Origin: Candidatus Brocadiia bacterium
GTDB lineage: Bacteria; Planctomycetota; Brocadiia; SM23-32
Assembly: GCA_046538485.1 (NCBI GenBank)
Contig: JBKHIT010000079.1
Coordinates: 1-18,373 of the forward strand
Direction of reading: 5' to 3'
Length of the DNA: 18,373 nucleotides
Position numbers and translations under genes: made by a program. Under the pieces are notes generated by a model. It saw nothing but the letters and a program-made list of their open reading frames with translations, had not been told where the DNA came from and ran no database searches. Positions within the stretch are counted from its first letter, which is position 1, and each line of letters opens with the position of its first letter. Shown piece by piece: positions 1 to 1,192 of the stretch.

Positions 1-31
1 CCCCCGAAACCAGAAAGCTGGTTGCAAGGCC

Positions 32-53
32 ACGCACTTTACCGAATAGTTAC
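32..53 (-). repeat. Outer inverted repeat, left copy (IS-end-like)
   Basis: Reverse complement GTAACTATTCGGTAAAGTGCGT matches 653-674 at 18/22. Confidence 0.6.
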
Positions 54-95
54 CCGCCGTATCCGGGTCGGACCCCGCCGTATCCGGGTCGGACC
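54..95. repeat. Perfect 21-bp tandem duplication across the left element end
   Basis: CCGCCGTATCCGGGTCGGACC at 54-74 and 75-95. Confidence 0.95.
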
Positions 96-617
96 AACAC
101 AAGTCCTTATGTGAACTCACCTTCCGACAATAAAGGACCGCATATAGAGCTTAGATCGGGGTTTTTGACCCCAAAATAGTGCTTCTAAGCAAAATCATGC
201 CTATTCCCCGATCACAGGATCTAATTTATGTCCGGAGAGGCCCAAAGGGCCATGTGGCCCCGACGCGTGGGCTTCCGCTCCTCCCGCATCAGGCAGGATC
301 ATCATCTTCAAAAGAAATTCACGCTCATGACACCGATGGGTCAGATGCCAGATGCAATCGGGTAAAAAATGTCTGTTCGCTCGGGGCAACGGGCTACCTC
401 CTCCTCTCAGCGACACGCAGCGGGCTGACATAAGCATATGGGATTTATCCACAACAGAGCACATCATTGTAGTCCGGCCAGTCCCATCCATCAATTCCAC
501 ACCCATCAGACTGCTTAGAATCCCCATTTCCCCCACAAAATGCCCAGTCTAAGCCATATATAGGGGGTGTTTTTGTCCTATTCCAAGCCCTCGCAACGAC
601 TTCGGTTGGTCCGACCC
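86..617. mobile_element. Non-autonomous (internally deleted) RAYT/Y1-transposase-derived element with symmetric inverted ends
   Basis: Perfect 13-bp IR: GGGTCGGACCAAC (86-98) and GTTGGTCCGACCC (605-617). GCTTAGA-N28-TCTAAGC at 149-190 and 513-554, each 50 bp inside an IR. Contains a RAYT-like N-terminal fragment. Confidence 0.72.
306..389 (-). pseudogene. N-terminal fragment of REP-associated tyrosine transposase (RAYT, Y1_Tnp)
   Basis: TTG at 389 preceded by AGGAGGAGG. (M)PRANRHFLPDCIWHLTHRCHEREFLLK matches the MPR/MAR..R......WH.T.R N-terminus typical of RAYTs. Similarity stops after 28 codons, with no HUH or catalytic Tyr. The frame runs on to a stop at 201. Confidence 0.78.
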
Positions 618-639
618 CGATAAAGCACCCCGATAAAGC
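614..639. repeat. Perfect 13-bp tandem duplication across the right element end
   Basis: ACCCCGATAAAGC at 614-626 and 627-639. Confidence 0.95.
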
Positions 640-652
640 GTACAGAATTGAA

Positions 653-674
653 GTAAGTATTCAGTCAAATGCGT
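653..674 (+). repeat. Outer inverted repeat, right copy (IS-end-like)
   Basis: GTAAGTATTCAGTCAAATGCGT, 18/22 identical to the reverse complement of 32-53. Confidence 0.6.
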
Positions 675-685
675 CAGTTTATACC

Positions 686-1192
686 CTACCGTGCCCTGTG
701 CCGGTAGGTTTCTGATTGGCCACTACGGTCCTGAGAGCATAATACACCATAGCCGCTTGGCCAACCGGCGCCGGATCCCATCTGGGCCATGGGCGCCAGT
801 GTATCTCCCAGCCTCCATACGATCACCACCATCATGTGACGGCCCGGTTGAACGCGCATATCATACGATTCAACAGGCCAGGCGTCCGGCGTACCACGCT
901 CGGGACCGCGGCCCAAAAAGGTCCCGTTGAGGTACAGCTCGTATCGCTCATCAGCGGAGACGTGTATTCGGAACTCTTTCTCCTCGGAAACCGTAAACTC
1001 GCGGCGAAAAGCCCAGACTCCAGTCTCCCGCGTCGCGTCGTGAGGATCGCGAACCCAGTGAACGTTGCGGAATGCGGTGGTATCCAATTCTTTATCGGAC
1101 TCATCTTCACAGTGAGAACTGCACCGATTGACACGGTCTGCGATGAAATCTTTTCCTTCTTTCATATCACCAGTTTCCACGGCTTCCTCCAC
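686..1192 (-). pseudogene. Truncated alpha-L-rhamnosidase-like (GH78) N-terminal domain
   Basis: FRREF...IHVSADERYELYLNG..LGRGPERG...ESYD...PGRH....VW....AP.AQM is typical of GH78 N-terminal beta-domains. Similarity ends at about residue 140 (~nt 765). The catalytic (alpha/alpha)6 domain is absent and the gene abuts the mobile region. Confidence 0.72.

Follow-up and report, generated by a model that had tools for sequence, protein, structure and literature searches.

The locus at positions 81-622 of the window, by which we mean the entire analysed stretch of 18,373 bases, raises the question of whether a short piece of a transposase gene enclosed by two mirror-image ends is the remains of a mobile unit and, if so, of what kind. 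The window is contig C53 of a host assembly that comprises 143 contigs and is 88% complete. The locus is, very probably, a non-autonomous, internally deleted copy of a TIRtron, an element of ~0.95 kb whose sole gene, encoding a RAYT-like HUH/Y1 transposase (TIRYT), lies between inverted ends of ~110 bp.

Both ends of the element at 81-622 are ~110 bp long and inverted with respect to each other, and each consists of a terminal box, GGGTCGGACC, followed at a fixed spacing by a subterminal hairpin. An earlier reading made from the sequence alone had reported a perfect 13-bp inverted repeat, and it is indeed present: GGGTCGGACCAAC is found at just two places in the 18,373 bases of the window, 86-98 on the plus strand and 605-617 on the minus strand, versus a mean of 0.07 matches in shuffled controls, 1 of 200 of which reached two. 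Allowing one mismatch, the terminal inverted repeat is 18 nt long (81-98 and 605-622), and at 86% identity it reaches 28 nt. The two GCTTAGA-N28-TCTAAGC blocks described in the same reading are also found at equal depth on both sides, at 149-190 and 513-554 and at no other place in the window (0.00 in shuffles), separated from the 13-nt repeat by exactly 50 nt (99-148 and 555-604). The left, gene-distal (3') end occupies 81-191 on the plus strand (nhmmer E 5e-13); on that strand its terminal inverted repeat at 81-98 includes the box GGGTCGGACC at 86-95 and is followed by the 50-nt spacer and the hairpin at 149-190 (plus strand), which has an inner GGGGT/ACCCC stem and whose stem forms in the minimum free energy and centroid folds of both strands. 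The right, gene-proximal (5') end occupies 512-622 on the minus strand (E 8e-13), with its 18-nt terminal repeat at 605-622 and the box at 608-617, both on the minus strand, and the hairpin at 513-554 (plus strand) recognized by pattern match and fold. Rfam gave no match in window positions 1-1000, and no RNA dataset was listed as containing the window stretch.

The element starts 80 nt from the contig start and adjoins another repeat, a setting in which a chance inverted repeat or an assembly artefact has to be weighed. This explanation is considered refuted, its chances being practically nil, given the shuffle values of 0.07 and 0.00 and the existence of a family of 77 end copies in the same genome. 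In addition, one contig from run X1 spans 94-711 with zero differences, although it does not count as independent support because X1 may be the source sample.

Between the ends lies the remnant of a RAYT-like (TIRYT) gene at 306-389 on the minus strand, comprising a TTG start and 27 further codons (PRANRHFLPDCIWHLTHRCHEREFLLK), and preceded on the same strand by a ribosome-binding site, GGAGGAGG (397-404, by sequence reading), 7 nt upstream of the TTG (389-387). Both features thus occur where the sequence-only reading had placed them, and the remnant peptide shares 79% identity (E 2e-16) with the N-terminus of the full-length, 267-aa homologue found in metagenome locus L092. The remnant stops ahead of the SNHxH and YxDxNMVR motifs and is left with neither the HUH motif nor the catalytic tyrosine; beyond its 28 codons the reading frame has no relatives. 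Membership in the Y1_Tnp/RAYT profiles, which had been proposed for the peptide, is borne out for the full-length homologues (6 of 6 match Y1_Tnp) and not for the remnant itself, Pfam giving no match for the short peptide, for the 111-aa ORF at 201-536 or for a 32-aa piece. A promoter-like site, TTGATG-17-TACAAT, faces the remnant at 466-494 on the minus strand; the evidence for it is weak, three such sites being found in 1-1300 versus 1.1 +/- 1.1 in shuffles.

The position of the deletion was revealed by comparison with sister samples, represented by Logan contigs of one study aligned to the window. In runs X2, X3 and X4 a contig matches the window from 307 rightwards and continues for 255 nt with different letters. 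The 30-letter consensus of this continuation, translated by hand in the frame of the remnant, reads ...LLK-FARDREKYM and fits the family consensus FLLRFAKDRxxY. The uninterrupted gene thus exists in the sister samples, and the break in the window copy, previously placed at 305, lies at 306/307. The proposal that this copy is a deletion derivative is supported: both ends, the ribosome-binding site and 28 codons are still there, and elsewhere the gene continues past the break. Word depth in the sister samples for the pieces 164-259 and 371-500 is far above that of the flanking host gene. Two apparent joints in the contigs were set aside: the joint 53->599 is not an excision and represents another locus (C46), and the joint 197->371 was not relied on, its sides being just 26-30 nt.

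The interior stretch at 192-305, of which the sequence-only reading took 201-305 for possible cargo residue, shows no similarity to RAYT loci or to the rest of the genome, and no source for it was found by blastn in the host genome, by tblastx against eight homologue loci or by blastn against 80 metagenome loci. A C-terminal reading frame for this stretch was considered and dropped as unconvincing. Contigs from other samples cover window positions 164-259 with 1-2 differences, and part of 192-305 may therefore belong to the family. In the host genome, blastn with the interior 201-503 returned only the window itself, as did 195-515; the interior being single-copy, nothing indicates that the window copy moved after the deletion, be it in trans as the sequence-only reading had proposed.

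The ends, as opposed to the interior, are repeated throughout the host genome. The right end gave eight further full-length blastn copies at 75-86% identity and one 32-nt match, and the left end gave five further matches. An nhmmer profile started from 12 copies returned 38, 70, 77 and again 77 matches at E<=0.01 in successive rounds, a converged total of 77 end copies. Their tips fall into two subfamilies, GGGGTCGGACC and GGGGACGTACC, and the window's left and right ends represent two distinct end types, the same two that are paired in a 403-bp element on contig C54. In 60 anchored copies, conservation begins 5 nt outside the G-run (T in 29/60, then A in 44/60, then A/T in 52/60) and the sequence further out is random. 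Both marks were located in 53 of these copies, and in 38 of them the box and the TTA of the hairpin lie 65-66 nt apart. The end design of this family is a terminal box (GGGTCGGACC, or GGGGACGTACC in the sister subfamily) with a GCTTAG...CTAAG hairpin ~51 nt inward.

Convergent pairs of ends span 112, 112, 166, 324, 403, 448, 460, 461, 461, 533, 981 and 2007 bp, the 533-bp pair being the window element in nhmmer hit coordinates (86-618). Tandem ends are present on contigs C82, C55, C44 and C92, and single ends outnumber pairs. No target duplications were seen at the end copies in the host genome, nor around the window element. The smallest paired forms are two 112-bp head-to-head doublets of two truncated ends, at C103 9514-9625 and C110 28495-28606, which are REPIN-like in appearance.

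The 981-bp pair, at C99 37117-38097, encloses the sole intact gene of the assembly, which encodes 261 aa (245 aa from the MPRANR start) and matches Pfam Y1_Tnp at E 6e-13. Searched against the host genome by tblastn, this protein gave nine matches, eight of which, at >=35% identity, correspond to the intact gene itself and seven remnants; all eight lie 9-148 nt from an end copy. The ninth is a homologue on C90 with 19.6% identity and no end nearby. Of the remnants, the one on C130 has residues 3-79 fused to 233-255 by an internal deletion, and the one on C121 has residues 13-102, cut off by the final 30 nt of an end. Three more are on C4, C43 and C110, another is that of the window, and the seventh is at C99 44856-44954. 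The seventh belongs to a partial copy from C99 44765 onward, which repeats the left end and the last 33 codons of the intact element at 189 of 190 positions (99.5%). The match starts 3 nt outside the G-run, the outer flank is unrelated, and the copy is interrupted where another end copy begins, just short of the contig end. C68 3060-3383 derives, at the DNA level, from the C99 element by internal deletion.

Multi-copy miniatures are present as well. Those at C99 32975-33435 and C121 22808-23255 share 88% identity over 399 bp, and pieces of the interiors recur on at least ten further contigs. This ~450-bp miniature, seen also at C8 24048-24264, C103 5284-5501 and other places, has GGGGACGTACC-type ends and a non-coding interior. 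The ends make up a dispersed family in which they occur singly, in pairs, in tandem and in miniature elements, and intact relatives carry the gene between them. An intact gene with the window's own end subtype was not found in the 88%-complete assembly, and no other transposase was found inside the paired elements examined.

Outside the host, public metagenome contigs were scanned for GGGTCGGACCAAC-N48-52-GCTTAG, which returned at least 121 stretches, 80 of which were fetched; some matches to this 19-base pattern could be due to chance, and L059, L128 and L136 look like one sequence deposited three times. Among the 80 fetched of at least 121 stretches, the spacer is 51 nt in 70, 50 nt (the window's value) in 6, 52 nt in 3 and 49 nt in 1, a skew that does not look like chance. 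Convergent exact boxes are present in 26 of these 80 loci, at distances of 196-337 bp (n=15), 441 bp (n=1), 565 bp (n=2) and 931-976 bp (n=8). A RAYT homologue at E<=1e-5 is carried by 20 of the 80, and the 28-aa remnant of the window matches 21 of them, with a best identity of 79%. Intact members with the same ends include L083, L092 and L124 (267 aa each) and L089 (247 aa), while several short pairs keep just the first 17-43 codons, like the window copy. The box, spacer and hairpin are visible at both ends of nine elements inspected (six of 931-976 bp and three shorter derivatives), none of which shows a target duplication. Two near-identical derivatives on different contigs, L079 and L112 (565 bp between boxes), carry a 43-aa N-terminal remnant and resemble the window copy.

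These observations allow us to weigh a different view of the family, that of a domesticated REP/REPIN-RAYT system in which only the ~110-nt units move, one by one, by means of a stationary RAYT kept by the host, the window being a dead duplicate of such a locus and not a copy of a unit that had moved whole. The excess of single ends over pairs, the tandem and clustered ends, as in BIMEs, and the single intact gene in the assembly all agree with it. We nevertheless consider it unlikely, as RAYT remnants lie beside ends at seven separate places and one partial copy is 99.5% identical within an unrelated flank. Moreover, eight full-length units of near-constant size (931-976 bp) occur within unrelated flanks among the 80 metagenome loci fetched, graded deletion derivatives retain the first 17-43 codons, and there is no GTAG-tagged short palindrome. 

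The association of gene and ends extends to related genomes. With the protein as query, the host genome and 40 related ones were searched; 30 loci from 27 genomes were fetched, 26 of them with a tblastn match, including two loci of the host genome itself (L015 and L043). In 15 of the 26 homologue loci an inverted repeat spanning the gene outscores all 30 shuffled controls, one of them (L021) marginally. The closest homologues (41-50% identity) have the same end design: a 23-nt perfect repeat with a CTTAC...GTAAG hairpin in L016, GCTTAGA...TCTAAGC blocks at both ends in L017, GGGTCGGACC at both ends in L041, and GGGTCTGACC in L042. An 18/18 repeat, GGGGTCGAACC / GGGGTCGAACCACGGTAA, surrounds a 50%-identical gene in L045, a contig labelled 'uncultured Victivallales bacterium'. 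A separate related-locus search with the protein returned one locus, and Rfam gave no match in four related loci. Intact homologues flanked by the same box and GCTTAG hairpin at a fixed spacing, which the check proposed in the sequence-only reading called for, are found on the host contig C99, in related genomes and in public metagenomes, and they support its interpretation.

The same data bear on the possibility that the locus is a miniature of an unrelated transposon, for example of the DDE type, that captured a RAYT fragment or inserted around it. The termini are classical-looking inverted repeats, and the frequent T-A outside the box in the host (A in 44/60, T in 29/60) recalls TA-targeting families. 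Against this, several genomes and many metagenome contigs have the gene together with the ends, the ends diverge together with the protein, the paired elements examined contain no other transposase, no target duplication was seen, and the T-A is missing from the metagenome relatives, all of which makes such an origin highly improbable. 

The assignment of the enzyme rests on family profiles, motifs and a predicted fold. In Pfam (E<=10), Y1_Tnp is the sole family above the cut-off in all six full-length homologues. The best-scoring family is NCBIfam NF047646 (REP-associated tyrosine transposase, equivalog), with 66.9, 68.5 and 58.0 bits for three full-length homologues, below its cut-off of 80; transpos_IS200 (NF033573) reaches 21.6-27.7 bits, its cut-off being 55. 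In an alignment of 10 sequences, the SNHxH and YxDxNMVR motifs do not vary. L092, the closest full-length relative, was modelled with AlphaFold (pLDDT 78.6, pTM 0.79), and the best Foldseek match of the model is 4ER8 (E 4e-6, TM 0.69), which is E. coli TnpA-REP bound to a REP hairpin, followed by the IS608 and ISDra2 TnpA proteins. These solved relatives bind to a hairpin in the DNA and, via an HUH metal site and a tyrosine, cleave single-stranded DNA and join it again. The model predicts an additional folded C-terminal part of ~75 residues (~157-233) without a Pfam name; the Foldseek matches listed cover the core and not this part. A PDB sequence search with the intact protein gave no match.

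A REP is a 20-40-nt imperfect palindrome with a 5' GTAG tag, and a REPIN consists of two REPs in inverted orientation. As in REPtrons and REPIN-RAYT systems, the gene here is bracketed by inverted cognate repeats that are dispersed and clustered, and 4ER8 is the best structural match. However, the ends are ~110 nt, with the box as the conserved tip and no 20-40-nt GTAG-tagged palindrome, the gene is multi-copy and decaying rather than single-copy and conserved, and the NCBIfam equivalog score falls under the cut-off. Insertion sequences of the IS200/IS605 group have no terminal inverted repeats, their left and right hairpins differ, and their TnpA is a dimer of ~130-150-aa subunits. The present elements share with IS608 and ISDra2 the HUH/Y1 catalytic fold (as modelled), subterminal hairpins and the lack of target duplication, but have inverted repeats and score below the transpos_IS200 cut-off. 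Like bacterial MITEs, the family includes short gene-less units bounded by the inverted ends of an autonomous element, with true multi-copy miniatures in the host genome and 196-337-bp pairs in metagenomes, whereas the window's own deletion form is single-copy and no target duplication was seen.

The closest correspondence is with the TIRtrons and TIRYTs, RAYT-like genes between long inverted repeats that were named in 2013 (Di Nocera, De Gregorio & Rocco, BMC Genomics 14:522, PMC3733652). Their repeats are described there as families of moderate abundance, present as singles, dimers and groups, and some or many of them begin with GGGGWSAS (PMC3733652). The elements described here agree with that account in having a Y1 RAYT-like gene between long terminal inverted repeats, not GTAG REPs, and 77 end copies dispersed as singles, dimers and groups. 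They differ from it in that the window copy lacks an intact Y1 gene between the repeats, 28 codons being left, and in that the ends are ~110 bp and two-part, with a box, a ~51-nt spacer and a hairpin. The GGGGWSAS motif, shared by some of the published repeats and so not strictly TIRtron-defining, is matched at 7 of 8 positions by the right tip GGGGTCGG and at 6 of 8 by the left tip CGGGTCGG; the sister subfamily tip reads GGGGACGT, the repeats here beginning with GGGGTCGG or GGGGACGT, and the tip of related locus L029, GGGGTCAG, matches at 8 of 8. The window element therefore belongs to an already-described kind, as a decayed TIRtron derivative. With regard to the sequence-only reading, its premise that RAYT-type enzymes go with short REP hairpins only is out of date in view of the long inverted repeats of TIRtrons and TIRYTs, and its suggestion of a RAYT subfamily forming mobile units with defined ~105-bp ends is supported in substance, while its novelty is lost to the 2013 description (PMC3733652).

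In Quentin et al. (2018, PMC6006769), 20 of 26 TIRYTs are placed in TnpAY1 subclass 2.1, which takes in 291 of the 292 members of RAYT Group 1 in Bertels et al. (2017, PMC5581495) and is defined by HTH-type C-terminal domains (Bac_DnaA_C, HTH_23, HTH_28). High flanking-repeat counts are given by Bertels et al. for RAYT groups 2 and 3 only (PMC5581495). Our proteins resemble subclass 2.1 in the class-2 (TnpA-REP-like) core, the ~100-residue C-terminal extension, the lack of canonical REPs nearby and inverted repeats that begin with GGGG[AT][CG]. In contrast, Pfam did not detect Bac_DnaA_C, HTH_23 or HTH_28 in the six full-length homologues, and the copies here look like a decaying insertion-sequence family, whereas the authors of subclass 2.1 report no evidence for autonomous mobility (PMC6006769). 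A full-text search for either name, TIRtron or TIRYT, found no bench study of these elements.

By analogy with the solved enzymes, the intact TIRYT would read the hairpin and nick at or near the terminal box, and it might then move or copy units bounded by two ends without target duplications. Tandem stutters, which the sequence-only reading does not mention, cover both tips of the window element. On the left, a 21-nt sequence is duplicated in tandem across the tip and flank (53-73 and 74-94, together 53-94, 100% identical), giving an extra partial tip at 60-74; on the right, a 13-nt sequence is likewise duplicated (614-626 and 627-639, together 614-639, 100% identical). In the host genome, 59 other tips were compared and 7 of them have a second partial tip 18-53 nt further out; a second box on the same strand, 21-34 nt away (108 nt in one case), occurs in ~7 of the 80 metagenome loci fetched of at least 121. 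Such stutters would be traces left by a nick that was resealed or by synthesis that restarted. On its own the window copy cannot move and would need the enzyme of an intact copy with matching ends. Neither an empty site nor a direct transposition event was seen in these data.

A stronger proposal, that TIRYT elements are fully autonomous insertion sequences and that their ends may also be landing pads favoured by two or more other repeat families, is one we put forward tentatively, judging it somewhat less probable than its opposite. If true, this would be the first HUH/Y1 family to move as a unit with symmetric two-part ends (a box and a hairpin ~51 nt inside), and the stuttered tips would show precisely where the nick is made; according to the literature consulted, loci of the RAYT type are not known to move as units. 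The host and metagenome loci show a graded series from full-length elements through partial-gene derivatives to miniatures. The additions to the known kind are modest, namely i) the two-part end geometry, ii) the deletion series, and iii) the recurrent tip stutters. The box, the 51-nt spacer, the hairpin and the candidate nick site provide substrates for the biochemistry of a single-strand HUH enzyme acting on inverted ends. For annotation, the family accounts for 77 repeats and probably for some of the contig breaks in the host assembly.

The hairpin was further assessed by folding and covariation. When the window ends are folded as single-stranded DNA, the GCTTAGA/TCTAAGC stem forms in all four strands, with modest z scores of -0.5 to -2.4, while the terminal box alone gives no stable hairpin. 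The 48-nt hairpin region has a mean folding z of -1.8 in 34 distinct copies, and RNAalifold with DNA parameters returned no consensus structure for 38 end copies. The TTA/TAA core of the hairpin is invariant and neighbouring stem positions pair in 11-18 of 28 distinct arm pairs; by pair count the covariation of the stem is weak, although G-C is exchanged for C-G in some cases. Support for selection on the hairpin is weak. In the intact C99 element, the last ~8 codons of the gene sit inside the gene-distal subterminal hairpin (C99 37205-37235), and for this reason conservation of the GTAAG arm at that end may partly reflect coding constraint. The C-termini of the homologues in L016, L017, L041 and L045 have a recurring motif, (R/K)E...(S/P)Y.

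Two other repeats are found in the vicinity of these ends. Window positions 1-52 (minus strand) correspond to the terminus of a different repeat, likewise not mentioned in the sequence-only reading, whose interior is absent from the assembly. This terminus occurs at 11-18 places in the genome, and its full-length (46-60-nt) matches are almost all at contig ends (C100, C21, C130, C119, C84, C24, C106 and C70); longer copies are present at C46 19154-19259 and C27 1-97. It stops 10-11 nt outside a GGTCCGACCC box in four cases (C53, C84, C130 and a variant on C104) and lies inside an end copy in three (C70, C46 and C139), and this recurrent position beside or inside end copies suggests that the repeat targets them. 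Searches for its identity gave no Rfam match and just 24-25-nt matches in relatives, the ORFs near one such match being uninformative. The second repeat interrupts six end copies (C25, C60, C43, C95, C48 and C70) at one and the same position of the hairpin loop. Window positions 653-727 are a diverged copy of it (73-78% identity), as are C70 14020-14093, C60 58030-58103 and C75 9232-9304, and in runs X3 and X4 the word depth over window positions 649-756 is ~970-2140, compared with ~5 for the neighbouring gene.
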